From an uncultured Planctomycetota bacterium (GTDB lineage: Bacteria > Planctomycetota > Planctomycetia > Isosphaerales > Isosphaeraceae): 64,000 bases of DNA. The translations under genes and the position numbers were made by a program. Position 1 is the first letter of the stretch; every line of letters starts with the position of its first letter. The notes beneath the pieces were generated by a model, which was not told the origin of the DNA, made no database searches, and was given only the letters and a program-made list of their open reading frames with translations. The stretch spans positions 722,742 through 786,741 of the forward strand of contig CAWJTV010000020.1 in the NCBI GenBank assembly GCA_963845755.1, read 5' to 3'. Below are positions 645-28,760 of the stretch, piece after piece.

Positions 645-1344
645 TCACAGCTTAATTTTGGGGTAGATCGACTTCAATTTGGAGCGGGCATCGTCGATCT
701 TCATCTGCCAATCCACTCCGCGCTGGGTGCTGTTGACGTCGGTTGACCAAGCGGTGGTCTCCACTCGCAGCGCCTGGGCATCACCGAAGCGGCGGCCGGC
801 TATACACTGCCGCGTCAACGAGCTGAGCTCGTTCTCGGCGATGTTCAGCCAACTGCCGTGCTTGGGGGTGTAGCAGAACTCGATGCGGCGGACCAACTGG
901 CGAGCACGGGGCGGTGCAAAGACTTCGTAGAAGGCACCCTTGGTGTGCGTGTTCAAGTTGTCGCATACCACGATCACTCGCTCGGCACTGGCATAACGGC
1001 CCTCCAACAGCGCGGCCATCTCGATCGCCCAGTCGACCTTGGTCTTGGTATCCCGGACGGCCACCTCGCGCCAGCCCGCCAGCGGCTCGGTGAACATAAA
1101 GATGTTCGCCGTCCCGGCACGCTCGTATTCGTAGTCGAACGCGCTTGGCGTGTCGGCGCGTGGCAGGGATCGGCACGCGGGACTCCTTCAGCAATTGCAC
1201 CGGCTGTTCGTCCATGGACAGGATCGGCCGCATCGAGTCGTAAGGCTTGGCGTAGGTCTCCAGCACCTCTTCCATGTGGGCCACGAACTCGCCGTCGGCC
1301 TCGGGCGGGATGACCCAGTACTCGATCTTGCGGTTGGTCATCCC
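645..1344 (-). CDS. IS630 transposase catalytic (DDE) part
   Basis: SMDEQP, VCDNLNTH and YTPKHGSWLNIAENE motifs; one indel near 1140. Confidence 0.88.
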
Positions 1345-1353
1345 GTTTTTTTC

Positions 1354-3066
1354 TAGGCTGGCAAAGTTAGCTGGAGGCAGCGGTGCTCCAAGTCCTTGAG
1401 GTAGGCCTCGGGATTGTGGCGGAACCGGCGTTGCTTCCGCCGCGATTCCCGCCGCACCTCCAGTTCCGCGCCAGTTCCTTCCAATCCTCAACATAGCCCG
1501 GGCTCAACACCAAGCCTTCGTCCGGCCGCAGCCGCGTCGCCAGCCCCGAGATCACCCGCGCCGAGCCCATCACCACCAGGCCCGGCGACCCCCGACGCCG
1601 ACCGCTGGCCCGGCGCTCGTGGTAGCGATGACTGCCGAAGGTGTGCTCCAGGTCGTTATTCGTCCGCGGCAGATCCGACGACTCGTAGCAGGCAAACAAG
1701 CCCGGCCAGTAGCTCCGGGTCACCTTCACGAACTGCTTCAAACCCGCCCGCACCGTGGGCTCGGTCTGTCGTCGCCGCCGCCCGGCGCATCCGCGCCAGC
1801 AGTTGCACCAGCCGCCGCCGCACTTTCTTCGCCGGCAGCCCCTCCTCGTTCTTGAGGATCCGGGCGGCGCCGCTTGACCCATTGGTACGACTCCCGCACC
1901 GCCGGGAACAGCGCGGCCGTCTCCTCCAGCCCGCGCCGCAGCAATTGCCTCAGCCGTTTCAAGCCCCCGGGCAGGTCGCCCGCCGTGGCGACGACATGGT
2001 CCAGGCTGGCGGCAATCCGGCTCAATCGATCCTGCCGCTTCAGCCCGGAGGCCGACAGCGGTGGCAGTCCGTCGTCGGTCAAGGCCCCGCGCACCGCGGC
2101 GCAGTAGTCCCGCACCACCTCCGCCTCCGCGTCCTCCGCGTCGTCCTCCAGCGTCCTTCTCCGCCGCACGCTCGATCTTCCGGATGCCCCGCACCCGCTT
2201 CTTCAACTCTTTCTTGGCGTGGCGATCCGCCTCGTAGATCGGCTTGGCCGCCTCGCGGAGGTAGTGGAAATGGCAGAGCTGATGGGGGACACCTTTGAGG
2301 GCCATAGCCACGGCGTTGCGGATGCTCTCCTGACCGTCGGAGACCACGCCGGTGATCGGCACCGGCAGGGCCTTCCGCACCTGGTCGATCAGGCCGGCCA
2401 GGTCCTGGGCCGTGGACGACAGCAGGCTCTTGGCCAGGAGGATCTCGCCGGAGAGGCAGTCGCGCAGCACCCAGAGGACCTCGTGGCCGACATCCGGCTG
2501 CAGGCCGTCGATGGCCAGGATGACGCGGCCCTGCGGGCGCAACAGCGGACCGAGTCGCTGGGGATCGGCCGTGGCCAGGGACCGCAGCTCGTCGTAGCGG
2601 TCCAACAGGTTGGTGACGGTGCGTTCGGCCAGGATGAGCCCGCGGTGCGTGAGCTCGCGGTGGATCTCGGGGATGCTGCGGTGCTCGGCATAGCGGAGCC
2701 GGCCCACCAGGGCCATGACGTCGAGGCCGAACTCGTGATAGGGCAAGGCGAAGTGGGGCTCAGCCTCGGGGCGGTAGGGTCGGAGGAAGCGGGAGCAGGC
2801 GGGATTGGGGCAGCGTCGGATCGTCAGGGTCAGCCGGAAGACGCCGTCGAGGGTGCTGATGGTGCGAAAGTTGTTGTAGTCGGCACCGGTCCGGTGCCGG
2901 CACTCGGGGCAGTTCAAGAGGACCGGGGTGAGGGTTAGGTCGCGATCGGGTTGCGGTCGAGGTCGTCGTCGTTTGTGGTTGCGCATGGAAAGCCTCCTCT
3001 GCTCTGTTCTGTTCTTACGTCCATTATACCAAGCCGAGGGGCTTCCCAGCTACTTTTGCTATCCTA
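1354..3066 (-). mobile_element. IS256/mutator-like IS nested in the IS630
   Basis: IRs TAGGCTGGCAAAGTTAGCTGG / CCAGCTACTTTTGCTATCCTA. 9-bp direct repeat GTTTTTTTC at 1345-1353 and 3067-3075. Confidence 0.85.
1367..2986 (-). CDS. DDE transposase (mutator/IS256-like), with indels
   Basis: N-terminal CPEC/CPNPAC Zn motifs; AIDGLQ, VVSDGQESI, HQLCHFH and LPRTNNDLE motifs. Confidence 0.8.
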   Translation of the reverse strand: MRNHKRRRPRPQPDRDLTLTPVLLNCPECRHRTGADYNNFRTISTLDGVFRLTLTIRRCPNPACSRFLRPYRPEAEPHFALPYHEFGLDVMALVGRLRYAEHRSIPEIHRELTHRGLILAERTVTNLLDRYDELRSLATADPQRLGPLLRPQGRVILAIDGLQPDVGHEVLWVLRDCLSGEILLAKSLLSSTAQDLAGLIDQVRKALPVPITGVVSDGQESIRNAVAMALKGVPHQLCHFHYLREAAKPIYEADRHAKKELKKRVRGIRKIERAAEKDAGGRRGGRGGGGGAGLLRRGARGLDRRRTATAVGLRAEAAGSIEPDCRQPGPCRRHGGRPARGLETAEAIAAARAGGDGRAVPGGAGVVPMGQAAPPGSSRTRRGCRRRKCGGGWCNCWRGCAGRRRRQTEPTVRAGLKQFVKVTRSYWPGLFACYESSDLPRTNNDLEHTFGSHRYHERRASGRRRGSPGLVVMGSARVISGLATRLRPDEGLVLSPGYVEDWKELARNWRCGGNRGGSNAGSATIPRPTSRTWSTAASS

Positions 3067-3503
3067 GTTTTTTTCAGAGTCCGCCGCACCGTCTCGTAAC
3101 TGACGGTTTCGACGATCCCCAGTTCCACCACCTTTCGAGCTAAGAGCCGCAGCGTCCAGTTGGCATAACCCGGGGGCGGTGACCCGAGCCGTGTGGCGAT
3201 GATCTTCGCCTCCTGTTCGCCGTTGAGTCGCTTCTCGACCGGCGGCATCTGGCGCCTGCTGCGGTCCAATGCCTCTCGAAAGCCGTACTCCACGAGACGC
3301 TGACGAATGTTCTCGACGGTCTGCGTTCGGCATCCGAACGCCTCGGCGATGCGACGATCGGTCCAGTTCGGACCGTCCGCATCGGCCTTGAACAGGATCT
3401 GGGCGCGTCGAACCTTCTCGCTGGTTCCCTTCAACTTCTTGATCACGGCCGCCAACTCGTCCCGTTCCTCAGCCGTAAGCCGGACAATGTACTTCTTGTT
3501 CAT
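3067..3503 (-). CDS. IS630 transposase N-terminal HTH part
   Basis: MNKKYIVRLTAEER...WTLRLLA...SYETVRRTLKK, ending at the A7C slippery site. Confidence 0.88.
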
Positions 3504-4231
3504 GGGGGCCTCCTTGTTCCCCGTATCATCCACGGTCGCGGAGGTTTCCCCAACCCCAATTTTTAGCTGTGACAAAGCACTAGTCATTCTTGAGAAAGAC
3601 GGCCTTGCCGGATTGAGCCTTCGGCGAGTTGCGACCGCATTGGATACTGGCGCGGCATCGCTTTATGTCTACCTGGCAAATCTCGACGAGCTGTATGCCC
3701 TGATGCTCGACGAAGCACTGGCGGCGGTCAAATTGCCCGAAGCTCTCGACCTACCCTGGCGGGATCGGTTGAAGACAATTCTCCTATCATATTTCTATGT
3801 TCTCAATGAACGGCAGGGCTTGGCTCAACTTGCCATGTCGACAATTGCCACTGGCCCCAATTCACTGCGCATTTGGGAACGCCTCCTTGGTATTCTCAAG
3901 GAGGGCGGAGTGGATGATGTACGAGCCGTTTGGGTTGTAAACCTGTTACTCTTGTACGTCACGGCCATTGTCGCCGAACAGAGCAATTGGCGCGCGATTG
4001 GCCAAGACCTTGGGCGAGTGAAGAGCGCGTTATCTAATATATCTGTGGAGCAGTTTCCCATCGTATCCGCGCTTTTTCGGGGGGGAATTCTCTCAGGCGG
4101 TGGCGACAGCGAAAGCCGCGTACTGTGGGCGCTCGATGTCATCATCAACGGCATCAAGGCCGACCACGCGCCGCCGCCTCGTATCGCCACGTAACGAAGA
4201 CCACCGAGTACACGAACTCTGGAGAACTCCC

Positions 4232-7827: not shown

Positions 7828-9373
7828 GTGCGTTGGTTCGACTTGCTCCGATTGCCCCTGGCCTCGCTGGGCCAGCAGAAGATGCGCACATGCCTGACGA
7901 CCCTGGGTGTCGTCTTCGGCGCGTTTGTACTCGCCGCGAGCCTGTCGATCGACGAGGGGGTCCAGCAGACGATCGAACGCGAGGCGAACAAGGGAGACGC
8001 CTTACGGAAGGTGTCGGTCTCTCCGGGGTGGCGGGCAGTCGAGACCGCGGCGGCGGACGACGTGAAGGTTGCCGGGCGGATGTCGCCGGATCGCCGCGAG
8101 CGAATCCGCAAGGTCCTCGCCGAGCGTGCCAGGCCGAGTCGTTCCCGCCGGGAGTCGGTCCCCCTGACCCAGGACCGGCTGGAAACGCTTTCGCGCATCC
8201 CTCACGTCCGGCAGATGATCCCGATCGTCGGCAGCCCGGTCGTCGCGACTCTGGGCAACAGGCCCGAGGAGGCGAGCGTCTCGTCCGGCGCCGGCGAGGA
8301 ACCGGAGTTCCGCAAGCGGGTCATCGTCGGCCGGTCGTTCGACTCGGACGACGAGAGATCGGTATTGCTCTCGGAGATGTTCGCGTACCGGATCGGGCTG
8401 ATCGACGACGCGGACCTGGACCAGGTCCTCGGCAAGCCCCTGCGGATCGAGATTCGGGGCCAGGAAGATGGGCCGAGCTTCCAAGTCGTGCTATCGGATC
8501 GGTCGAAAGCCAGCGGCAGCCGAGAGGAGCAAGCGGCGCTGCACCAGCTCGCCTGGCAGATCCCGGGGGCGCTCGACAGATTTAGCCTGACCGACGAGGA
8601 GAGTGCAGCCCTGCGGAAGGCGATCCGGCGAGAATCGGCGAAGGTTGACTCGGTCGTCGTCGCCGACGACTTCCGGGTCGTCGGGATCTTCCGCGAGTTG
8701 ACCGACGATGAGGAGAAGGACGCCTGGAGCCAAATTCCCGCCTACACGGACCTTGTGCTGCCCCGGCGAACGGCGGTCGACCTGATGTTCCGCGACCCAG
8801 CCCGTCGCGAGGGGGGTGTCGACCGGGCGGTCCTGCTTGTCGACGAGATGAGTAACGCCAAGGAGGTCCTCAACACGGTCGAATCGCTCGGCATGGACGG
8901 CAGTTCGATCGTCGGTCGCATCGAGCGCGAGCGGCTGACTTACCTGCTCATCTTCGGCGGGATGACGTGCGTGGCCGCGGTGGCCCTGCTCGTGTCGTCG
9001 CTCGGGATCGCCAACACGATGCTGATGAGCGTCCTGGAACGGCGGAGGGAGATCGGCATCATGAAGGCCGTCGGCGCGGCGAACTGGCAGCTCCAGGCCG
9101 TGTATGTCATCGAGGGGGGCCTGATCGGCCTGATCGGCGGGTTGCTCGGCCTGGGGCTGGCCTGGTTGATCTCGTTCCCGGGCGACGGGTGGGTTCGCTC
9201 GATGGTCCACCGCGACATGAACATTGAGCTCTCGGGCTCGATCTTCGCCTTCCCGCGCCTGGATCGGCGTGACGGTCCTCGTGTTCACCGTCGGCGTGAC
9301 AATCGTCGCGGCGCTTTATCCCTCCCGGCGCGCGGCGATGCTTGACCCTGTCTCGGCGCTCCGGCACGACTGA
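7828..9373 (+). CDS. ABC transporter permease (MacB/FtsX family)
   Basis: RTCLTTLGVVFG N-terminal TM; GIANTMLMSVLERRREIGIMKAVGA; ends LDPVSALRHD after an indel near 9260. Confidence 0.9.
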
Positions 9374-15049: not shown

Positions 15050-15764
15050 GTAGGCGTCCGGTCCTACCAGTCGCGCCGGCCGACGGACCGCACGCGGAGC
15101 GGACCGCCATCCCATCCGATTCGTGCGCCTTTCCCGACCTCGGCGTCGGTGGTCCTCATGCCTTCGGCCCGGCGATCGCACGACGTTCCTGCGTAAGCGT
15201 CCGATCCTCCCAGTCGGGAGCGATGGTCGAGGGGCCGTATGCCGAGCGACCGGCCCCTCCTTTCCGCCCCACGGGCGCGGAGCGGCCGGCCACCTTCTCC
15301 GATCCGCGGGCGACCTTCGACCGCGGCGGCGGTGGCCCTCACACGGTCGGCCCGGCCATCGCGCGACGCTCCTGCCGCGCGGCCTTCTGCCGTGACTCCT
15401 TACGCCGCGCTTCGTCGAGACGGTGCTGCAGCACAGGCTCCGGGTGGCTCGCGGCCCAGCGGTCCGGCAGCAAGGACTCCAGGTCCGTCTCGCCCGCGCA
15501 CAGCCGCAGCACCACGTCCCGAAGGTACGCCCACGGCTCCAGGCGATGACGCTTGGCTCCCGCCAGGATCGTGAACGTAAGCACACGGTCCTCCCAGCGG
15601 GCCGGGTACCGAGCGGCCCGCCCGCCTTTCCGCGACACGGGCACGTAGCCGCCCGTGCCCCGGTCCGAATCCTGGCGATTTCCAACCTCGGCGTCGGTGG
15701 CCCTCACCCGGTCTTTCCCGCCGCTGCTCGACGTTCCCGCCGCGTTTCCTTCTGTCGAGCCGCC
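15050..15764 (-). mobile_element. stack of three IS66 right-end remnants
   Basis: IS66-type termini GTAGGCGTCCGG (15050), GTAAGCGTCCGA (15193) and GTAAGCACACGG (15577), each followed by a related tnpC 3' tail (e.g. EPWAYLRDV...LLPDRW at 15339-15576). Confidence 0.7.
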
Positions 15765-15976
15765 GAGTGCGTCCGGTGAACCACATCTTCAAAGCGGTTC
15801 ACGGGCGTGAGATGATGTTCGGGGCACCGTCTTGATTCTTTCACTGTGCTCGGCGCACGCGATCATCCCGCGCTCGCGCCGGGCCGAGACGAACTTGGGG
15901 CGGGACAAACCTTGAGGGGCGCGCGAATCGCCCCGCGCTCGTCCGGGGTGACGAGGAGCGCGGGGCTCGGGTGCGG

Positions 15977-17553
15977 TCACTCAGTCCCGTCGGCGCCGGC
16001 CTGGTGCAACTCCTGCCAGCGGTCCGGCAGCAGTTCGTCGATCCGCTTCGCCGGGTGCGTGCTGATCCGATCGAGCCCATCGCGGAGGTAAGCCTGGGGG
16101 TCGATCCCCAGATTCTTGCAGGTCGTGCACAAGCTCATCAACACGGCCGCCGTCTGGCCTCCCTGGTCGCTCCCCGCGAATAACCAGTTCTTCCGTCCCA
16201 GCGCCACGGGCTTGAACGCGCGGCGCGCACGCACCGTTGTCCAGTTCGAGGAACCCGGCCTCCAACGGACGCTTCAGGGCCTCCCAATGGTTCAAGGCAT
16301 ACTGGATCGCTTCGCCGATCGGACTCTTGGGCAGAACCTTGGGCTGCTCGGCTTCCAGCCAGGCGTGAAACTTGTCGAAGATCGAACGCGATCGCTCGTT
16401 TCGCAGTTCGTGCCGGAACGCGACGAAGGCCTCGTAGTCCGCGGTCGCGCGCTTCTTGGCGTCGCGTTCGACGTCGTAGAGCAGGCTGATCCATGCCAGC
16501 GCCTGATGGGACCGTTGCGGGTTCGACGGTCCGCGCCTCGTAGAACTTCCGTCGCGCGTGCATCATGCAGCCGACCTCGATAATCTCGCCCGACTTGTAC
16601 AGGCCGTCGTAGGCCGAATAGGCGTCGGCCTGGAGATAACCCTGGAAGTCCTTGAAGATCTCCCGGGGCCCGGTGGCGCTGCGGTCCGGCGTGTAGCGAT
16701 AGACCACGTAAGGATGGCCGCGGTCGCCGACGGAGACCCAGAGCCGGCCGGTCTTGATCCCCTTGCCGTCGTGGTCCTGCACCGGCACCGTCGTGTCGTC
16801 GTTCTGGACGACCCTGGAGCTGAGGATCTTCTTCAGCATCAGATCGACGATCGGCTTGAGCAGATCGGCGATCGTGGCCATCCAGTCGCACATCGTTGAC
16901 CGCGACAACTCGACGCCCGAGCGATCGAGGATTCCCTCGAGGCGATAGAGCGGCAAGTGATCGGCATATTTGCTGACGGCGACGTAAGCCAGCAGCCCCG
17001 GGCCTGGCAGGCCCTTGTCGATCGGCTCGGGGAGCACGTCGGCGATCACGACGTTGGCCTGGCAGTCCTGGCAAGCGTACTTGGGGCGGATGTGTTCGAG
17101 GATGACCAGGCGGGCGGGGATGAATTCGAGTTGCTCGCGGACTTCCCGGCCGATGCAGGTGCGCTCGGCGCCGCAGTCGGGGCAAGTGCGTTGTTCGGGC
17201 GGGACGTCGTGCAAGACCGGCACTCGGGGCAGGCTCGCCGGCAACGGCTTGCGTCCGTGGCCCTTCTTCTGGGCCGCACTCGGAGCGGGCGTCGGGGCCG
17301 GGGCCGGCTCCGGGGTCGGGGCGGGTGTCGGCGCCGCCTCGGCCTGCTCCAGGATCTCCCGGGCGAAGAGCAAGAGCTGGGCCGGGTCGATCCGCTCCCC
17401 TTTGGGACCGTAGCGCTGGCGGAGGAGCTGCTCGAGCTGGTGCTGGAGCTTCTCGTTGAGATGGACCTGCTGGGCGAGCGACTTGAGCAGCTCACGGATG
17501 AGCTGATGGGCCGCCTCCAGGTCGTCCGGGAGTGGGTCCGCGAGGGTGATCAT
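15977..17553 (-). CDS. tnpC: IS66 transposase TnpC (indels)
   Basis: SKYADHLPLYR, QNDDTT, LQADAY, ALGRKNWLFAGS and LLPDRW motifs. Confidence 0.92.
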
Positions 17554-17779
17554 ACCCTATACTACGTTGACGGGTGCTCGATTGTTGGCGCATTATGCTC
17601 CTGTCGGTAGATTATTCTCCGAATTTCGAAGGGGAGTGGCGGGCCGCGAGTAGCGGACGCGCCGTCGGGCCTTGTCCAGATCGATGCCGGCCAGGAGGGC
17701 GGCGAGTTCGGCGGTGGTCATCTCGACGCGATCGGCCGCCGCGTCCGGGATGCGGAAGGTGCCGCGTTCGAGCCTCTTG

Positions 17780-20363
17780 ATGCTGGCATCACAGGACCCT
17801 CGTTCTTGTGGCGTTACACAAATCCTGAGACGTTGGGCTACTGCCGCCACGAATCGGCGGCCTCTCTTGCTACCGGTCGGGACGGTCCTTGGGAACGACC
17901 AACTCAGGGTGCCGGGCGGCGATCCAGGAGTTCTTTCGTCTGGCCAGTTGTCGCAGGCGACGAACCTCGTCCTTGTCGGCCCACACGATCAGATGCTTTC
18001 CCGAAGGCGTACGCCGCGAATGGACCCAACCCTGCTTGATCCAATAATGGACCTTCTGGGCGATGACGCCGAGTTTCCCGGCCAAGTCGGGGATCCACCA
18101 CTCGTCCTGGCCGACGAGGTCGTCGCGGAACAGTTCTCCGACCAGCCCAAGTTCACGGACCAACGCCCCGATCGTTCCCGCCGTGAACACGCCGCGACGG
18201 CGCGGCGGGACGAAGCCCTCGGCATTGAGCCGCGCGGCGATCTGCGACAGGTGAAGTCCTTCTCGATGGAGTTGCTTGATTCGTTCCGTGAGGCGTCGAA
18301 AATCCTTCAATTGCTCATACCTGCCGACTGGCCTCGCGACCTGCTGTTGGGTTGTCATGCCGCCGAGCCAAACGATCGTTACCTCGTTGAGCTCAGTCGC
18401 CTTGTCGGCCACGACAATGACCCGCTCCACCGCGCAGCGCACGATCTGCTTGCGATCCATCGCCGACGTGCCTGGTGCGTGCCAGAGCGCGGCGACGCTC
18501 TCGGAGAGCGATCGAATCCGTTGGCGATCGGCGTCGTTCAGCGTCGCCGGCAGTCTCGTCAGGAACCGATGGTAATCCTCCTCCGTTTGACGCTGCTTCT
18601 TCAGCGCGTCCTCCCACCGCGCCTCGAGTGTCCGCGCCACGAGTCGGTTCTCGGGCTCCACGGCCTGATACTGCCGCTCGGCCCTCTCGACCTCCTGGCG
18701 TGCGCGTTCCAGAGTCTGACGCCAATGGTCGTGGAGGCGCTTGCGCTCTCGCTCGGCGTTCTCGATCGCGCGTAGGCTCAGGTCCAGCGCAGCGGGCTCC
18801 AACTGCGCGGAGCACTTCCTTCGCGACCAGGTCGTCCAGCGTCTTTGCCGAGATGCACCCGCACGGCTCGTCCAGGGCCAGCCGCCAATACTCGCCGCAG
18901 TGATAGCCGGGCTTCTTGTCGGCCTTGTATCGCGTCGTCATGTGGCGGCCGCATTTCCCACAGACGACCAGGCCGGGCAGCAAGGCCTCGCCGCGTTTGG
19001 GCACGCCCCGCGTGTCGTGGAGCGATCGATTCTGTTTGAGGCGTTCCTGATTCGCGAGATAGCGATCCCAGCTAATGTACGCTGGGAGCCGATCCGGCAG
19101 GAACACGGCCAACTCCTCGGGCGGCACGAACCACTTGCCGCCTTCGGCTCGACCCGTCGTGGGATTCTTCGTCCCCTGCGCGATGTAGGCCATAAGCGTA
19201 TGCCCCCGCATAGATGGGGTGTCGCAAGATCGACAGGACTCGACTGGGAGAGGCTGGCTTCCACTCCAGCTCCCCAATGCGCCCACCGCGATGACGGCGA
19301 AATCCCAGTTGCAGGTTGTTCACGACCAGGTAACGGAAGACCGCGTAGGCGGAACCGAGTTCCTCGAACTTCTCGAACACCAACTGAATCATTCCACGCG
19401 CCTGCTCGTCAGGCTCTTGAATGATCTCGCCCGTGGCCGTCTTGAGGTATCCCAGCGGAACGGCCAGGAACAGCTCGCCTGCGCTCCGCTTTGTTCCGAC
19501 TGCCTCGAAGCAAACGATTGTACATAGTAATCAATTCGTATTCGCTCATTGCGCTTTTCATGCCAAGGAGGAGACGATCGTTACTGTCCAAGGCATCGTA
19601 GACGCCATCTTGATCGCATAGCAGGGTGCGAAAGATGCCGCAGACGTCGATAAGACGATGCCATTCGGTATTCGACCGCGACACCCTGCTAAGCTCCAAC
19701 CCCAGCACGATCCCCACGTGGTTCAAGCTCACTTCCGTCATCAACCGCTGGAAGCCCGTGCGATGGTCGGTCAACTTGCCGCCGTGGCCCTGATCCTCGT
19801 CGATGATCACCACCCGCTCTGCGGGCCAACCGAGCCGTTGCGCGAACTGCGCCAGAGCATACTGCCGTTCGCGAGACTCGCGGTTCTCGAGGACTTGCTG
19901 CGGCGTTGACTGCCGCACGTACACGATCGCGAGTCGATCGAGATGCCGATCGCCAATCTTCGAGCTCGACCTCTGGCCGAAGGTGGAGGTCGATGGAGTC
20001 TCGTCGATTGATCTGTCCGTGCGATTGACGGCCCGTGCATCACGAGATTTCATCGCGCACCTCCTGAGCGGTGCGAGGCGCGCCGAGTTGTCGAGTCACG
20101 ATGTCGCTGAGGGTGAGCAGCGTTCGTTGACGCTGCTCGTCCGTCAGTCGGCTCCAGAGTTGGTCCAGCACCGACGGCCGAACGACCGACGTGCGCGGGG
20201 GGAGCAACGAGTCCGGCGTCTCGCGACATGGGGCACCTCCTTGGATCACGGGGTGTTGAGCTTCGATCCATTCCGCCAGCCGCATCAGGCCGGCCAGCGC
20301 GATTATGGGGGTGTCCGACGATTCCTGTAAAGTCGAGAGGATGGGGGCAGTCTTACTCGTACT
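17780..20363 (-). mobile_element. minimal large-serine-recombinase integrative element
   Basis: Bounded by a 5-bp TCTTG core (17775-17779 and 20364-20368); contains only the recombinase and a small upstream ORF. Confidence 0.8.
17870..20053 (-). CDS. large serine recombinase (indels)
   Basis: AIVYVRQST catalytic Ser, ELSRVSR, LLPGLVVCGKCG Zn ribbon, coiled coil VEPENRLVARTLE; spread over ORF pieces 19409-20053, 19072-19392, 18393-19286 and 17870-18802. Confidence 0.9.
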
Positions 20364-20558
20364 TCTTGGCCCAGACGGCCAGGCCATCGCGATCCCAGTA
20401 CAGGATCTTGATGCGGTCGCGGCGCTTGTTGACGAAGACGAAGAGATGACCGGAGAGGGGATCTAGCGCCAGGCTGCCTGATGCCAGGGCGGCCAGGCCG
20501 TCAAAGCTCTTGCGCATGTCGGCCGGCTGTTTGGCGAGATAGACGCGGACCGCGGCGC

Positions 20559-20924
20559 TCAGTCCGAACATGGGCGTCCCTCCACGACCGCGATGAGATG
20601 GCGGAGGGTCAGGGGGTCGAATCCGGGGGCGACGGCGATCCGACGTCCGTTGGAGAGGATGAGTTCGAGGTGGGGTCCCGAGGCGGCGCTCGGCGGGATG
20701 GGATCGGGAAGGATAGTGACCGGGAGGAAATGGCGGTCGGCACTGGCGAAAGGACGATCGTCGCTGGGAGTGCGATCGGCCGGGGCGGGCTGGTAGAGAT
20801 GCTTTCGGAAGGAGTGAAGCGAGATTTGGCGAAGGCGGCAGAACTCGGCTTGAGTCAGACCGCTCCTGCGGAAATCGTTGAGGAGGGCATTCCATCGTAG
20901 ATCGATGGTTCGGCTTCGAGACAC
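20559..20924 (-). CDS. tnpA: IS66 TnpA accessory protein
   Basis: SGLTQAEFCR HTH, FLPVTI and LELILSNGRRI; overlaps the tnpB start. Confidence 0.85.
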   Translation of the reverse strand: MSRSRTIDLRWNALLNDFRRSGLTQAEFCRLRQISLHSFRKHLYQPAPADRTPSDDRPFASADRHFLPVTILPDPIPPSAASGPHLELILSNGRRIAVAPGFDPLTLRHLIAVVEGRPCSD

Positions 20925-21017
20925 GGCGTGATCTCCCTGACGGGACCACTGGCCCCGACAGCACTATCATCGCGGGGAGTCACGCCGCTTTGTAGATGCA
21001 CTTCACCGGACGGACAC

Positions 21018-21074
21018 AACTGGTCCGTCCGGCCCGTTAAGCCGGTCGTAGGTTCGAATCCTACCTCCTCCGCC
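21018..21074 (+). tRNA. 5'-truncated tRNA-Asn(GTT)-like sequence
   Basis: Anticodon arm CCGGC-CCGTTAA-GCCGG, T arm GTAGG-TTCGAAT-CCTAC, acceptor 3' strand CTCCTCC; the 5' part is replaced by the IS66 end. Confidence 0.6.
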
Positions 21075-21197
21075 CCGTCCATCCGCCAGGCGCGTGGCCG
21101 GGGCGGTTAGGCGTGTCGCTCCGGAAACTTGTGCAGGTCTCGGTTTTCTCGCACGCACTTCAGGATCATCATCAAAGTCACCAACACGGAGGCGATC

Positions 21198-21425
21198 ATG
21201 GCCGAACGACTCAACGGCGGAGCCGTCCTGCACGTCCGCTTCGACGGCCGAAGCCTTGACCTGCCGCTGGGCGATCTCCATGTCGGCCTCGGGGCCGACG
21301 ACTTCGAGATCAAGACCGCGCTGGCCCGGCACCTCGAGGTCCACGAGGCGAAGCTGCGCGACTATACCGTGGACCGGCACGAGACCGGCAACCTCACCGT
21401 CCGGCCCGAGGCCGTGTTCGGTTGA
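21198..21425 (+). CDS. 75-aa putative ubiquitin-like (beta-grasp) protein ending in Gly
   Basis: GGAGG RBS; beta-beta-alpha-beta-beta pattern; C-terminal LTVRPEAVFG; same strand as the downstream ThiF gene. Confidence 0.6.
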   Translation: MAERLNGGAVLHVRFDGRSLDLPLGDLHVGLGADDFEIKTALARHLEVHEAKLRDYTVDRHETGNLTVRPEAVFG

Positions 21426-21498
21426 TCGGATAATCAAGGGACCAACCCGTACCCAACGGCACGAGCGTACAAACAACTCTTTCATAAGGCAGAAGTTG

Positions 21499-22770
21499 GG
21501 TGGTGTCCCAAGCGTATTGAATGTCGTAAGTCTTGCGGTGTTTGCGACTTAGGCAAATCTTACTGAGGGATATGTGAGCCATTCACGCATGGTCCACACA
21601 TGGTCGGTCAACCCCGCGGCCATCGCGGGCGATCGCTGCCGAGGTCGGCCCTGCTCGTCTCGATCCGCCAACGTCCGTACAGGCCAGCAGAAGTTATAGC
21701 TGTAAATTGTGAAATAGGTCATTGATTCATGCACTTGCCAATCCTTCGAGAACGTGTAGGTCTTGCGTACCTTCCGGGCGTTGCGATGTCGGTCCGTCGC
21801 GTTGTCTCGTTCCAGGAACGAGACGTTGACCTGCAGGCTCACCTTGGAGCGCCGCAAGGCCCGACCCAACGCCGCCATCGTGCCGAAGATCAGATGGACC
21901 AGGATCTCCACCACCCGACCCCGCCGACGCTTCTTCTGGACAGTGGCATAGGTCAGCTCCGGCAGCGGCTCCTTCTCGGGCACCATCCGGTGGCTGTCGC
22001 GCCCCGTCGGGGTCGTCGTGACGTCCGTCCCGTAGACGTGCAGGATCGCGTCCTTGTAGGCCGGGTAGTCATCGCTGGTCATCAGCCGCAAGGGACGGCC
22101 CTCCGTCCGCTGGTAGACGTCGCTGACCACAGTCTCGGTCTGCTCAGACATTCGCGCCCCGGGAACGACGCAGAGCACCAGCTTGTGCTCCGGATCGTAA
22201 GCCGTGTGATCCCACCAATCGCCCCGCTGGGCGTCGGCCGGGTCTGCCGGGTCGCAGTGCTCCTGCTTCTTGTAGACGAAGGACCATTTCTCGTCGAACT
22301 GGACTTCTTCAGTCCGAGGGGGAAAAAGCCACGAGTTCGTCGTGGAGTTGCTGGGCGTGATCGCCCAGGAGTCGGCTGTAGCGGACCACGGTATCGCGGT
22401 GCACCCCCACCAGCCGAGCGGTGGCCCGCACCCCAGTGCGATCGGCCACGTGTCTTATCAAGTCGAGGGCCTTGTCCGCGGGTAAGGTCGAACCGAACAG
22501 GGGTGTCCCCTTCCGTTCGGAGAACCGGGCCTTGCAGGTATGGCAGTAGAGCAGCCGGATCGGTTGGGTCTTGCCGTAGCGGCCGACGACGGTCAGATTG
22601 CCGTGTCCCCTCTTGCCGTAATCGGGGCAGGCCGGGTCTTGGCAGCAAAAGCGGGAGAGATCGTCCATGGATACATCTCCATGATTGCGTGACTGGTGCA
22701 GACGAACTCATAGCGATAAACCCGTTATAAGCGGTGGACTTGCGACATTCAATACAGCTAGGACACCACC
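21499..22770 (-). mobile_element. IS1-family-like insertion sequence
   Basis: IRs GGTGGTGTCCCAAGCGTATTGAATGTCG / CGACATTCAATACAGCTAGGACACCACC; 8-bp direct repeat AGAAGTTG (21491-21498 and 22771-22778). Confidence 0.88.
21549..22668 (-). CDS. IS1-like transposase (Zn finger/HTH plus DDE, frameshifted)
   Basis: CCQDPAC...CHTC N-terminus; TTTTTCCCCC shift site near 22320; QFDEKW, TSDDYPAY, FLERDN and SPAMAAGLTDHVW motifs. Confidence 0.8.
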
Positions 22771-22897
22771 AGAAGTTGCAGGTTCGAATTCCTGCCGGCC
22801 CAATGGCTCAATCATGGGGCCGTAGCTCAATGGCAGAGCGCTGCTGAGTTTCAACGCTGATGCGACTTGTACGGGGCTGGACATCGATCGGGAACAA

Positions 22898-23043
22898 CCC
22901 GCACCCGACGGCATGAGCCTACAAACCTAACCGGGACCAGTCCTCGAAAGAGGGTGGGGGTTCGAGTCCCCCCGGGTTAAAATCCGTGGCGAAACTGGTA
23001 GACGCGCTGGTAGATGATCTTAAGCTCATGCGACTTGTGCGGG
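22898..23043 (+). ncRNA. YrlA/Y-RNA-like permuted tRNA mimic no.2 (class II, Leu-like)
   Basis: Closing stem CCCGCAC/GTGCGGG and GCATGAGC/GCTCATGC. Inside are ACCAG/CTGGT, variable arm CCTC-GAAA-GAGG, T arm GGGGG-TTCGAGT-CCCCC, a looped acceptor stem, and D arm GCG-AAACTGGTAGA-CGC. Confidence 0.78.
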
Positions 23044-23048
23044 CTGTC

Positions 23049-26948
<3,900 letters not shown>

Positions 26949-26993
26949 GCGGACCTCCCGCCGAACCGCCACGTCGTCTTCCGTTGACGGATC

Positions 26994-27055
26994 GTAGGGT
27001 GGGTGAAACCCACCAACTGACTGAGACTTACATCGGCGGGTTGCACCCACTCTAC
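26994..27055. repeat. GTAG-type REP doublet (REPIN-like)
   Basis: GTAGGGTGGGTGAAACCCACC ... GGCGGGTTGCACCCACTCTAC inverted pair. Confidence 0.7.
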
Positions 27056-27094
27056 AGCGGCGGTTTTTCGAACGGGCGACGCAATTCTCTTGTG

Positions 27095-27982
27095 ATGCAT
27101 CGGACATCTGTGGCGATCAAGAAACGCTTCCTCGAGACCCTGGATCGATTGGCGGCCGTCGAGGATCGCGCCCTCGCCTCAGAGTTCCTGGCACCGATGC
27201 TTCGTGGAAGGGTAGTCCAGGTACGGATTGCCGGAGTCGTCTGCCGGCTCAGGGTGAGCCCACCGAGTTTCGAAGGTTGGGGTGTCTTCCGGCCCACGTC
27301 TTCAAACACGGCGGAACTGGTCCGTCCGGCCCGGATGACCGAGCGACGCCAGTACCTTGAGCTCCTCCCCTTGCTTCGGATGATCGTCTGTCTCCGCGTG
27401 CAAGACCAATGGCTGGCGATCCCCTCGCACGGTGCCGACACGCATCTTCGGATCGAGGGGCTGTCCTCCATCCGCCTGGTCGAGGAGGCCCAGCTTTTCG
27501 AGGTCGTGCTCACCCGCTTCGACGGCGCACAATGCTGGTATGACGGTCCGGACCCGCGCCGAGATCCCGGGACGGCGGCCTACCTTCGCGAGGCGCTCGG
27601 CCGAATGGTCGAGCCCCAGCAATTGAGCCGGAACGGACTGACTGCGGAGGAACGAGCAGCGTACGTTGTGAGCTACGCACTGCGGCTCCAGGCGGGGATC
27701 GAAGCCCATCGCGACCGGGTCGAAGAACGACTCCGCATGGCGCTGGCCCACGCGGGCGCCAGGCTTCGCGACTACCAGGAACGGGGCGACGTTTACCGAA
27801 TCGCCTATGAGGTCGATGGCCGCCGCCACGTTTCGGTCATCGACCCCCAGGACTTATCTGTCCAGGTCGCCGGCATCTGTCTGAGCGGCCAGGACCGCCG
27901 CTTCGACCTCAGCAGCCTGGTCGGCGTGCTCCGCGAGGCAGAGGGGGGTTCCCAGATCGTCCGCGTCGGCCCCGATTATTGA
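27095..27982 (+). CDS. hypothetical protein with C-terminal E2-like AGICLSG motif
   Basis: ~295-aa ORF between the TROVE and ThiF genes on the same strand; start may instead be GTG 27110. Confidence 0.7.
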   Translation: MHRTSVAIKKRFLETLDRLAAVEDRALASEFLAPMLRGRVVQVRIAGVVCRLRVSPPSFEGWGVFRPTSSNTAELVRPARMTERRQYLELLPLLRMIVCLRVQDQWLAIPSHGADTHLRIEGLSSIRLVEEAQLFEVVLTRFDGAQCWYDGPDPRRDPGTAAYLREALGRMVEPQQLSRNGLTAEERAAYVVSYALRLQAGIEAHRDRVEERLRMALAHAGARLRDYQERGDVYRIAYEVDGRRHVSVIDPQDLSVQVAGICLSGQDRRFDLSSLVGVLREAEGGSQIVRVGPDY

Positions 27983-28115
27983 GCGTTTCAGGCAATAGGC
28001 AACCTCGCGCCGTGGCCAGGTCTTCCGACCTTGCCACCCGACCGGTCGAAAGACTCCCTCGGGTGATCTGACGGGTCAAGGCTTCCCTGCTACGCCCAGA
28101 AGAGAGGTGACAGCG

Positions 28116-28760
28116 ATGGCCGACAAGTTCCATCACGAGCGGATTTATCGCGGAGCCGACCTCCTGGGCAGGCTCGAGACGGTCCCGATCACGCTTTGCG
28201 GCGCGGGGGCTTTGGGATCCCTCCTGGCCGATAACCTGTCGCGCCAGGGATTCCGCCGGTGGACGGTCATCGATCGCGACCGCGTCGCGGAGCACAACGT
28301 CGGCACGCAGCTCTACGGTGAGGCAGAAGTCGGGGCGTGGAAGGTCGAGGCGCTACGGAATCGTCTCTTCCGGGCCGTGGGAGTCGAGATCGAGGCCATC
28401 GCCAAGGAATTCACGGAACGGAACTCCCGGAGCCTCTTAAATGGCACGGGCTTGGTCCTCGACACGTTCGACAACTCGGCCGCGCGCGGGCTGGTCCAGA
28501 AGCGTTGCCGGGAGCGAGCCGTGCCGTGCCTCCACGTCGGCCTGTTCGCCGACTATGCCGAGGCGATCTGGGATGAGACCTATCGCGTCCCCCGCGACGT
28601 GGCTCTCGACGTGTGCGATTATCCGCTGGCTCGCAACCTCGTTCTCCTGGCCGTCGCGGTGGCTTCGGAGGCGTTGATTCGGTTCGTCCTCGATGGCTTG
28701 AAGGGCGGCTGGTCGGTTACGCTCCGCGACCTCGCCATCCGACCTCTAGAGCCCAGATGA
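28116..28760 (+). CDS. ThiF/E1-like adenylyltransferase
   Basis: [23 protein letters not shown] and DTFDN motifs; no CxxC pairs; candidate catalytic Cys in DVCDYP. Confidence 0.92.
   Translation: MADKFHHERIYRGADLLGRLETVPITLCGAGALGSLLADNLSRQGFRRWTVIDRDRVAEHNVGTQLYGEAEVGAWKVEALRNRLFRAVGVEIEAIAKEFTERNSRSLLNGTGLVLDTFDNSAARGLVQKRCRERAVPCLHVGLFADYAEAIWDETYRVPRDVALDVCDYPLARNLVLLAVAVASEALIRFVLDGLKGGWSVTLRDLAIRPLEPR

Follow-up and report, generated by a model that had tools for sequence, protein, structure and literature searches.

YrlA-like RNAs with one handle and differing tRNA-like bodies upstream of a divergent Ro60-like gene in planctomycetes

A stretch of planctomycete DNA carries RNA elements in which the parts of a tRNA stand in permuted order and are closed by a common stem, upstream of a gene for a putative Ro60-like protein, and the question arises of what these elements are: Y RNAs of the YrlA type, processing marks of an operon leader, partners of a neighbouring ubiquitin-like module, or tRNA debris. 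The stretch analysed (64,000 nucleotides (nt), hereafter the window) covers positions 722,742–786,741 of contig CAWJTV010000020.1 (C20) in a 14.27-Mb assembly (GCA_963845755.1; 49 contigs, 87.9% complete) of an uncultured bacterium of the family Isosphaeraceae; positions are given in window coordinates, and those of the features are collected in Table 1. A sequence-only reading had described two such elements, RNA 1 and RNA 2, in the range 21446–23043; this range catches the pair and leaves out a truncated third element, RNA 0, and a handle-like pairing in the leader of the gene. The locus probably holds an array of YrlA-like Y RNAs in which a constant handle is predicted to dock on the downstream divergent Ro60-like protein and differing bodies would present tRNA elbows to other factors. 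The best reading is that of a divergent, uncatalogued Ro60/Y-RNA branch, the window copy of which has been decayed by insertion sequences.

RNA 2 has exactly the topology that was described for it. Its terminal helix (helix 1) is formed by CCCGCAC and GTGCGGG and its second helix (helix 2) by GCATGAGC and GCTCATGC, and the GACTT and TACAAAC noted as unpaired are indeed read in the sequence. The 5′ side runs CCCGCAC, an unpaired stretch, GCATGAGC, and CTACAAAC; it is followed by a 4-bp connector (CCAG, whose partner CTGG follows the D arm), a 15-nt variable arm, the T arm GGGGGTTCGAGTCCCCC, and a short loop-closed acceptor stem. The 3′ side consists of TG, the D arm GGCGAAACTGGTAGACGC with a 3-pair D stem and a tRNA-Leu loop, GCTCATGC, GACTT, and GTGCGGG. 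The long variable arm and Leu-type D loop claimed for RNA 2 are borne out, since 21 of 22 bases in the D-arm region are identical to positions 7–28 of the genome’s own tRNA-Leu(CAG), one of 102 tRNAs found by ARAGORN across the genome. The minimum-energy fold of RNA 2 (−57.1 kcal/mol, z −2.10, with 6 of 200 shuffles as good) recovers the two helices of the handle and, in the body, the variable arm, T arm, and acceptor hairpin. Moreover, a new covariance model of the kind that the sequence-only reading had called for (R1, built from 47 non-identical class I-type units, relatives only) scores RNA 2 at 80.5 bits with E = 9e-19. Orthologues of RNA 2 are present in four related loci (L085, L004, L005, and L009; 80 related loci were fetched in all and carry L labels). 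The Leu-type body is rare: a search of 120 other genomes of the family found it at full length in 4 and added a single new full-length copy.

Whereas RNA 2 is whole, RNA 1 shows the motifs described for it without being contiguous, as a 1,272-bp insertion sequence separates its two halves. The element has imperfect inverted ends of about 30 bp (GGTGGTGTCC...), and of the 8-bp direct repeat found on either side of it (AGAAGTTG), one copy, at 21491–21498, lies within the 5′ part of RNA 1; five further copies of the element, with about 81% identity, are found in the genome (two on contig C39 and one each on C28, C44, and C1). The insertion point falls between the last base of the variable loop and the first base of the T stem. 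Joined computationally for folding, the halves (53 nt and 97 nt, 150 nt in total) fold as handle, connector, T arm, closed acceptor stem, and D arm, and the joined RNA is collinear end to end with four intact orthologues (122–126 identical of 152–153 columns). Given the element between the halves and this collinearity, RNA 1 is a gene split by an insertion and probably dead. R1 gives 27.2 bits over 21446–21566 for the 5′ part and 61.8 bits over 22721–22875 for the 3′ part. The T loop of RNA 1 has 8 nt, compared with a 7-nt TTCGAnT-type loop in all 47 aligned relatives. The terminal helix was said to covary between the two copies, and the T/A to C/G change can be read directly.

Evidence for the structure also comes from the related loci, where motif searches recovered 94 stretches delimited by 5′ and 3′ handle strands. 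A unit begins with the 5′ handle strand and the connector, continues with the T arm, the loop-closed acceptor stem, and the D arm, and ends with the 3′ handle strand. In the handle itself, a terminal helix of 7 bp leads through an asymmetric internal loop (5′ CCAACG, 3′ GACUU) into a second helix, the middle of which is mostly mismatched. For the 47 class I-type units, RNAalifold predicts a structure that includes the terminal helix and some of the second helix, together with the T arm, the acceptor stem, and the D stem, with compensatory changes in 17 of 27 pairs. When this structure is extended to 34 pairs by the missing pairs of helix 2 and a connector of 3 bp, 95.0% of cells are paired compared with 81.0% in shuffles, and 22 of the 34 pairs change on both sides. 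Covariation across homologous loci, on which the sequence-only reading had staked its proposal, is thus present: the score of 0.410 stands against 0.142 in shuffles, none of 500 shuffles reaches it, and slid partners give 0.097 at most. R1 finds 261 matches in 79 loci at E ≤ 1e-3 and 133 at E ≤ 1e-9; in the alignment of the latter, which is fitted to the model, 93.1% of cells are paired (72.6% in shuffles), compensatory changes affect 30 of 34 pairs, and the score is 0.500 (0.163 in shuffles). More than 130 units conserve the handle and the class I-like core helices and show covariation in both.

Finer features point in the same direction. Helix 2 has two mostly mismatched positions in its middle (mismatches in 18 and 30 of the 47 units), which makes this irregularity a conserved one. 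The tertiary 15:48 pair covaries (A:U in 31 units, G:C in 14, other combinations in 2), and the UA linker is present in 46 of 47 units. Taken alone, the handles of 91–93 units of all body types are paired in 87.1% of cells, as opposed to 81.2% in shuffles, with none of 1000 shuffles reaching this value; pair 5 of helix 1 is U-A in 65 units and C-G in 22, and position 5 of helix 2 is A-U in 32, G-C in 27, G-U in 17, and C-G in 8. The unpaired motifs of the handle are CCAACG (51 of 93 units), GACUU (65 of 93), and NUACAAAC, which follows AGC.

The bodies closed by this handle differ widely. According to our own motif classification of units located at most 2 kb upstream of the Ro60-like gene in 64 loci, 47 units carry class I-like permuted bodies and 23 a T arm without a recognised D arm; 8 combine a tRNA-Ser-type D arm with a long variable arm, one of them matching its genome’s tRNA-Ser at 22 of 22 positions. 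Permuted bodies with an intact anticodon arm account for 4 units, non-permuted bodies for 3, Leu-type bodies for 2, and other bodies for 3. Two or more classes coexist in 24 of the 64 loci. The non-permuted bodies exceed the Rfam tRNA threshold within their handles (38.7–54.2 bits, e.g., 54.2 in L036 and 41.8 in L010), so the handle accepts two connectivities. Such normal-order bodies, which lack a full acceptor stem, are seen in the handle at L008:5682–5750, L010:5678–5751, L036:5159–5225, and L016:4813–4871. Thus, the earlier idea of a shared handle with interchangeable bodies holds in so far as the same handle closes clearly different bodies in many loci.

The array is tightly linked to one gene. 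For the linkage counts, loci were taken in which the sequence reaches 1 kb or more upstream, and after removal of one duplicate there were 64 of these. A unit lies no more than 2.5 kb upstream of the Ro60-like gene in 59 of them; at least two units are present in 42 and at least three in 19. The units form same-strand arrays of 1–4 directly upstream of the gene, the median gap between unit and gene in relatives is 140 nt, and all 261 R1 matches at E ≤ 1e-3 lie on the gene’s strand. Units are also found upstream in 5 of the 6 viral contigs that encode the Ro60-like protein; four of these contigs are 373–572 kb long. Three viral loci on contigs of this size (L104, L106, and L107) have a Ro60-like protein of 53–60% identity preceded by 2–6 handle-bearing RNAs. 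In the window’s genome there is a single Ro60-like locus, and full-length R1 matches are confined to it. As a separate observation, short R1 matches of about 70–95 nt, apparently near-bodiless handles, occur between the Ro60-like gene and the following gene for a 295-amino-acid (aa) protein in many relatives (L005:7578–7672 and 7959–8026, L008:7551–7644, L010:7582–7673, L006:7589–7679, and others); the corresponding 146-nt spacer of the window, 26949–27094, contains none.

The partner had been called a TROVE protein, of which the Ro60 fold and the position on the same strand stand, whereas a match to the Pfam TROVE profile and an intact reading frame do not. Full-length homologues have 495–553 aa. 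For the model of one of them (P0005), Foldseek ranks 1–11 are all Ro60, Rsr, or TROVE proteins aligned over the full length (about 525–565 columns, E 3.4e-10 to 4.2e-8), and it is because of these structural matches that the product of the window gene is assigned, as judged from a predicted structure, as a Ro60-fold protein escaping sequence profiles. Two of four homologues narrowly pass the vWA_Ro60 profile (28.7 and 29.7 bits; cut-off 27.7), and neither NCBIfam nor PADLOC matches the protein. The family is large: of 7,999 candidates that were scored, 2,262 proteins reach E ≤ 1e-3, and species-representative genomes hold 589 loci. Its members are named “hypothetical protein” or “VWA domain-containing” throughout the sources seen. 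Of 201 genomes sampled from the phylum, 3 contain it, as do 15 of 121 from the window’s own family; both counts include the window’s genome.

How close, then, are these RNAs to YrlA? The YrlA family (Rfam RF02553) shares with the window RNAs the order of protein-binding stem, T arm, loop-closed acceptor stem, UA, D arm, and stem; its consensus reads terminal helix, internal loop with a 3′ ACUUG, second helix, CUA, 4-bp stem, short variable loop, T arm, closed acceptor stem, UA, and D arm. The YrlA topology claimed at the outset therefore stands as to the order of parts, with RF02553 aligning to both window cores, though locally and below threshold: model positions 23–85 of 114 are covered, with 31.8 bits for the 3′ part of RNA 1 (at 22770–22843) and 21.6 bits for RNA 2. 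Further likenesses are the NUAY element after the 5′ stem strand, the ACUUG before the 3′ terminal strand (ACU(U/C)G in 126 of 133 units), acceptor stems and variable loops that vary in size, and the 15:48 tertiary pair, which covaries in YrlA as well (PMC4201824). As defined by Chen et al. 2014 (PMC4201824), a YrlA lies at most 4 kb from a Ro60 orthologue on the same strand and has a tRNA-like domain with T arm, closed acceptor stem, and D arm in this order together with the tertiary-contact nucleotides; the window locus shows both, RNA 2 (end at 23043) being separated from the ATG at 25388 by 2,344 nt, of which 2,134 nt are an insertion sequence, which leaves a gap of about 210 nt without it. 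YrlA is bound by Rsr/Ro60 in Salmonella and M. smegmatis (PMC4201824).

Some differences from YrlA concern the bodies and the neighbourhood. The sequence-only reading took the class II mimic for unusual; it is not new in itself, because long class II-like variable loops have been reported for many YrlAs in the preprint of Wang et al. 2018 (bioRxiv 10.1101/312249), and just the full Leu-type body is uncommon. The same preprint describes an “extreme conservation” of sequence in the D and T stems of YrlA, whereas the present arrays hold Leu- and Ser-type D arms and one class without a D arm. They consist of 1–4 units of differing bodies, and their neighbours are a possibly ubiquitin-like open reading frame (ORF), an unassigned protein, and an E1-like enzyme; the Salmonella YrlA locus presumably has rtcBA as neighbours instead. 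Several Y RNAs beside one Ro60 gene are known from Deinococcus (Yrn1 and Yrn2) and Salmonella (YrlB), and these RNAs, modular tethers of the Rsr–Y RNA–PNPase type, follow the same modular logic of a constant Ro-binding stem with a variable effector module (PMC4201824). Unlike in Yrn1, Yrn2, and YrlB, most modules here mimic a tRNA in full or in part, and they represent several tRNA classes and two connectivities. Supplemental Table S1 of Chen et al. 2014 (PMC4201824) places YrlAs near TROVE proteins in Pirellula, Planctomyces, Rhodopirellula, and Singulisphaera, 172–482 nt from the Ro gene. No literature joining Y RNA, Ro60, and Planctomycetes was found. The planctomycete Ro60 proteins of Chen et al. 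2014 were considered as possible members of the present family. Genes positive for Pfam TROVE were found in 15 of the 201 sampled phylum genomes, and these sampled genes, to which the comparison was confined, belong to a different family: among 10 fetched loci, just 2 gave weak tblastn matches to P0005, with 23–25% identity.

An ordinary or a permuted tRNA gene has also been considered and rejected, as the acceptor stem is loop-closed, the handle stands in place of the anticodon loop, and ARAGORN makes no call. In the red alga Cyanidioschyzon merolae, circularly permuted tRNA genes encode the 3′ half before the 5′ half and are processed to ordinary free-ended tRNAs. The 3′-before-5′ order is common to both, whereas the present RNAs have a loop-closed acceptor stem and carry the handle where a tRNA has its anticodon loop. 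At gathering thresholds, neither ARAGORN nor Rfam reports anything at the site of RNA 1 and RNA 2; the sole Rfam tRNA match there (25.7 bits, below 29) bridges the D arm of RNA 1 and the T arm of RNA 2.

By analogy with known Y RNAs, the constant handle is most likely the docking site of the Ro60-like protein, and the tRNA-like bodies would be exchangeable modules. Binding of the handle by the Ro60-like ring would follow the example of Ro60 and the bulged stem of Y RNAs; the array would be co-transcribed with the operon and then processed; the bodies could serve as interchangeable adaptors or decoys for elbow-recognising proteins; and a strand-swapped handle in the leader might let the Ro60-like protein regulate its own synthesis. 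For the role of the tRNA-like module in bacterial Y RNAs, the related loci offer a natural “domain-swap” series that separates the constant part, the presumed protein dock, from the exchangeable part, with differing bodies as concrete baits for factors that read the tRNA elbow. The analysis also brings out a large Ro60-like family annotated as hypothetical and RNAs missed by Rfam, both tied to a ubiquitin-like/E1 pair and to large phages.

Several observations weigh against this interpretation. The gathering score of the YrlA model is 69 bits, which is missed by the window RNAs (22–32 bits) and by the intact relatives (28–41 bits); in the latter, YrlA at gathering was unmatched in 10 loci, and 5 loci gave 28.4–40.6 bits. 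The published YrlA motif GNCGAAN0-1G is present in the first 35 nt of just 3 of 133 units, neither window RNA among them; the commonest sequence at its place is ACCCAACGGC, and a ACCCAACGG-type sequence corresponds to it in the present RNAs. The body of RNA 2 itself is almost without covariation because just five similar sequences are available: the five known copies average 89% column identity and show little covariation beyond helix 1. As to expression, metatranscriptome contigs from four soil or rhizosphere runs of four studies carry RNA 2-like sequence with 1–9 differences over 81–124 nt (one spans 22889–23012 with 9 differences, another 22932–23012 with 1), which gives a weak hint of expression for RNA 2-like sequence, since such libraries can hold DNA and the contigs show no RNA ends. 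The segment 22771–22850 is uncovered in these four runs, and none of the public runs contains half or more of the sampled words of 22771–23048. In an intact relative, a scan found no sigma-70-type promoter or terminator between the units, which leaves discrete transcripts a prediction; the promoter and terminator scans of the window and of the intact L005 were uninformative.

The protein side and the state of the locus add to these points. The binding of the handle by the Ro60-like protein is something we infer by analogy. YrlA has Ro60 as its partner, whereas Pfam TROVE (PF05731) is unmatched in the window’s genome, in the window ORFs, in the four full-length homologues, and on all listed Ro60-like homologues. 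The P0005 model is of moderate confidence (predicted local distance difference test (pLDDT) score 69.8, predicted template-modelling (pTM) score 0.49), its TM-scores to Ro60 structures are 0.43–0.58, and when the protein alignment was searched as a profile against solved structures, a TROVE protein came up at E = 1 at best. Finally, the window locus is broken several times: RNA 0 and RNA 1 are interrupted, a 2.1-kb insertion precedes the gene, and the gene is frameshifted in the assembly. For these reasons the system is probably inactive or impaired in the window’s genome, and since the copy is decayed, it is poorly suited for experiments, for which the intact relatives are better.

Table 1. 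Features of the locus in window coordinates.
Feature	Position	Strand	Evidence
RNA 0: variable hairpin, T arm, loop-closed acceptor stem, no D arm, 3′ handle GCTCCGGAAACTTGTGCAGG	21018..21137	+	alignment with relatives
75-aa ORF, possibly ubiquitin-like, between RNA 0 and RNA 1	21198..21425	+	tblastn
RNA 1, 5′ part, 53 nt: 5′ strands of helices 1 and 2, NUACAAAC, small hairpin, variable loop	21446..21498	+	sequence, fold, R1
Insertion sequence, 1,272 bp, splitting RNA 1	21499..22770	.	inverted ends, 8-bp repeat, other copies
RNA 1, 3′ part, 97 nt: T arm, loop-closed acceptor stem, UA, D arm GCTCAATGGCAGAGC, 3′ strands of helices 2 and 1	22779..22875	+	Rfam, R1, orthologues
RNA 2, intact, 146 nt	22898..23043	+	sequence reading, fold, R1 match, orthologues
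Second insertion sequence, 2,134 bp	23048..25181	.	terminal inverted repeats CTAGCCTGGATTCCCATGGAGGGG; DDE_Tnp_1 and HTH matches in minus-strand ORFs
Leader element: 3′-handle strand 25190–25211 and 5′-handle strand 25272–25300 around GC-rich hairpin	25190..25300	+	fold
Ro60-like gene (helical ring domain and vWA domain)	25388..26948	+	homologues, fold
295-aa protein, unrecognised family	27095..27982	+	in 47/80 loci
ThiF/E1-like adenylyltransferase	28107..28760	+	Pfam ThiF E 1.4e-24; NCBIfam and PADLOC E1 matches; 45/80 loci

RNA 0 represents the 3′ two-thirds of a third handle-bearing RNA, of a type also present in L004, L018, L056, and L019; R1 scores it at just 12.5 bits (E = 0.22). Its 5′ part has been cut off by a 5.25-kb IS66-like element ending at 21017, an end that was mapped from 7 other identical copies. 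The composite element occupies 15764–21017, includes IS66 TnpA/TnpB-type ORFs and a serine recombinase, and has at least seven genome copies with 99.5–99.9% identity. The missing 5′ half was not found within the window. A candidate for the 5′ handle half lies 2.4 kb outside it, on the opposite strand (C20:720336–720364(−)), and adjoins an inverted copy of the same element at C20:715080–720331, which suggests an inversion of about 23 kb between two IS66-like copies.

The second insertion sequence interrupts the spacer between RNA 2 and the Ro60-like gene, its flanks being collinear with L004 and L005. At its right end there is an outward-facing sigma-70-like site (25041–25068, plus strand: TTGACC, 16 nt, TATAGT; 10 of 12 matches), which, to go by its sequence, could drive the Ro60-like gene after the insertion. 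In the gene itself, a 1-nt insertion near 25590–25597 relative to three relatives puts residues 1–70 and 71–520 into different frames. The assembly is as likely to be in error here as the gene is to be a true pseudogene, because in 8 of 14 other genomes of the same family the gene also appears in several frames. In four genomes of this family (G045, G061, G034, and G046), it is in 3–5 frame-shifted pieces; such pieces look like the product of indel-rich assemblies and not of repeated independent decay.

Between the second insertion sequence and the gene, two handle strands in swapped order are predicted to pair: the fold of 25186–25305 has −59.1 kcal/mol and z −4.78, and none of 200 shuffles is as good. 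The same swapped-order handle is found in L005:5800–5912 (z −4.06) and L004:5786–5910 (z −1.91). Downstream of it follow a further hairpin, a ribosome-binding site, and the ATG. The predicted fold makes it possible that a strand-swapped handle before the Ro60-like mRNA is an autoregulatory binding site. The same leader pairing, together with the small ORF inside the array and the spacing of 20–40 nt between units with no promoter- or terminator-like sites in the intact relative, would also fit another explanation, namely that the units are not trans partners at all and act in cis as parts of an operon leader, where tRNA-like marks direct cleavage of the RNase P or RNase Z type and stems stabilise the mRNA; YrlA of M. 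smegmatis is reported to be an RNase P substrate (PMC4201824). However, processing signals need no covarying handle with invariant unpaired motifs common to more than 130 units, nor do they call for the strict link with a single protein family that is kept across phyla and phages, and the layout matches that of known Ro60-bound Y RNAs, all of which renders a cis-leader role quite unlikely.

Three further proteins of the cluster are conserved. The 75-aa ORF is found by tblastn in 43 of 80 loci with 45–84% identity, always just upstream of the RNA array; its conserved C-terminus (...TGNLTVRPEAVFG) has an invariant end in Gly (...RPEAVFG), and Pfam, NCBIfam, and PADLOC give no match for it. The 75-aa protein and the ThiF/E1-like enzyme look, from their sequences, like a ubiquitin-like protein and its activating enzyme bracketing the locus. 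The model of the 295-aa protein (pLDDT 86.4) has an OB-like middle domain and a C-terminal alpha/beta domain with an invariant C262. Its fold matches are weak (OB-fold and small alpha/beta domains, Z ≤ 6.7, Foldseek E ≥ 6.5e-4; RWD-type domains, as would be expected of an E2-like (UBC/RWD) enzyme with a catalytic Cys, only at Z 4.6–4.7), the ESM Atlas offers no usable match, and NCBIfam and PADLOC have none. A bolder version of the Y-RNA reading takes these proteins in: the handle would be a universal docking tag, and the Ro60-like ring together with the ubiquitin-like protein, the E1, and the OB-fold protein would carry decoys (class I, Leu-like, Ser-like, anticodon-bearing, acceptor-less) that bait enzymes attacking or modifying tRNA, coupling tRNA damage or phage attack to ubiquitin-type tagging in a mobile surveillance system of planctomycetes and very large phages. 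In this extended form, the proposal is unlikely.

The bracketing pair could also be given the leading part, the tRNA-like bodies being substrates or guides of the ubiquitin-like/E1-like module, in tRNA modification of the sulfur-carrier type or in RNA-directed tagging, with the Ro60-like protein as an accessory. Enzymes of the ThiF family act with small carrier proteins in tRNA thiolation, and the 75-aa protein with its invariant C-terminal Gly and the ThiF-like E1 are both conserved in the cluster (43 and 45 of 80 loci). Neither a thiolation enzyme nor a PP-loop ATPase was found among the conserved neighbours, however; the invariant element of the RNA is the handle and not a modifiable tRNA position, and the handle layout matches the Ro60-binding module, so that such a role is very unlikely. 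That the units are functionless decayed tRNA-derived repeats or debris of rearranged tRNA arrays, as the insertion sequences of the window locus, the tRNA gene arrays adjoining some related loci (L027), and the “dimeric tRNA” origin proposed for YrlA (bioRxiv 10.1101/312249) might suggest, is highly improbable in view of compensatory changes in 22–30 of 34 pairs and in the tertiary pair, the presence of all 261 matches on the gene’s strand, and conservation from Isosphaeraceae to Phycisphaerae and phages.

A few observations stand apart from these readings. The sole literature match for Ro60 or TROVE with ubiquitin-like terms is an Asgard virus preprint, passages of which mention viral Ro60 and E1-like genes, separately. 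In L027 (a Bythopirellula genome), a dense array of about 17 tRNAs occupies positions 690–3505, directly upstream of the Y-RNA array. The window’s genome has a dense tRNA array of its own, 3.6 kb long and separate from the locus, on contig C41 (590,000–593,600; ARAGORN tRNAs 41-4 to 41-38).

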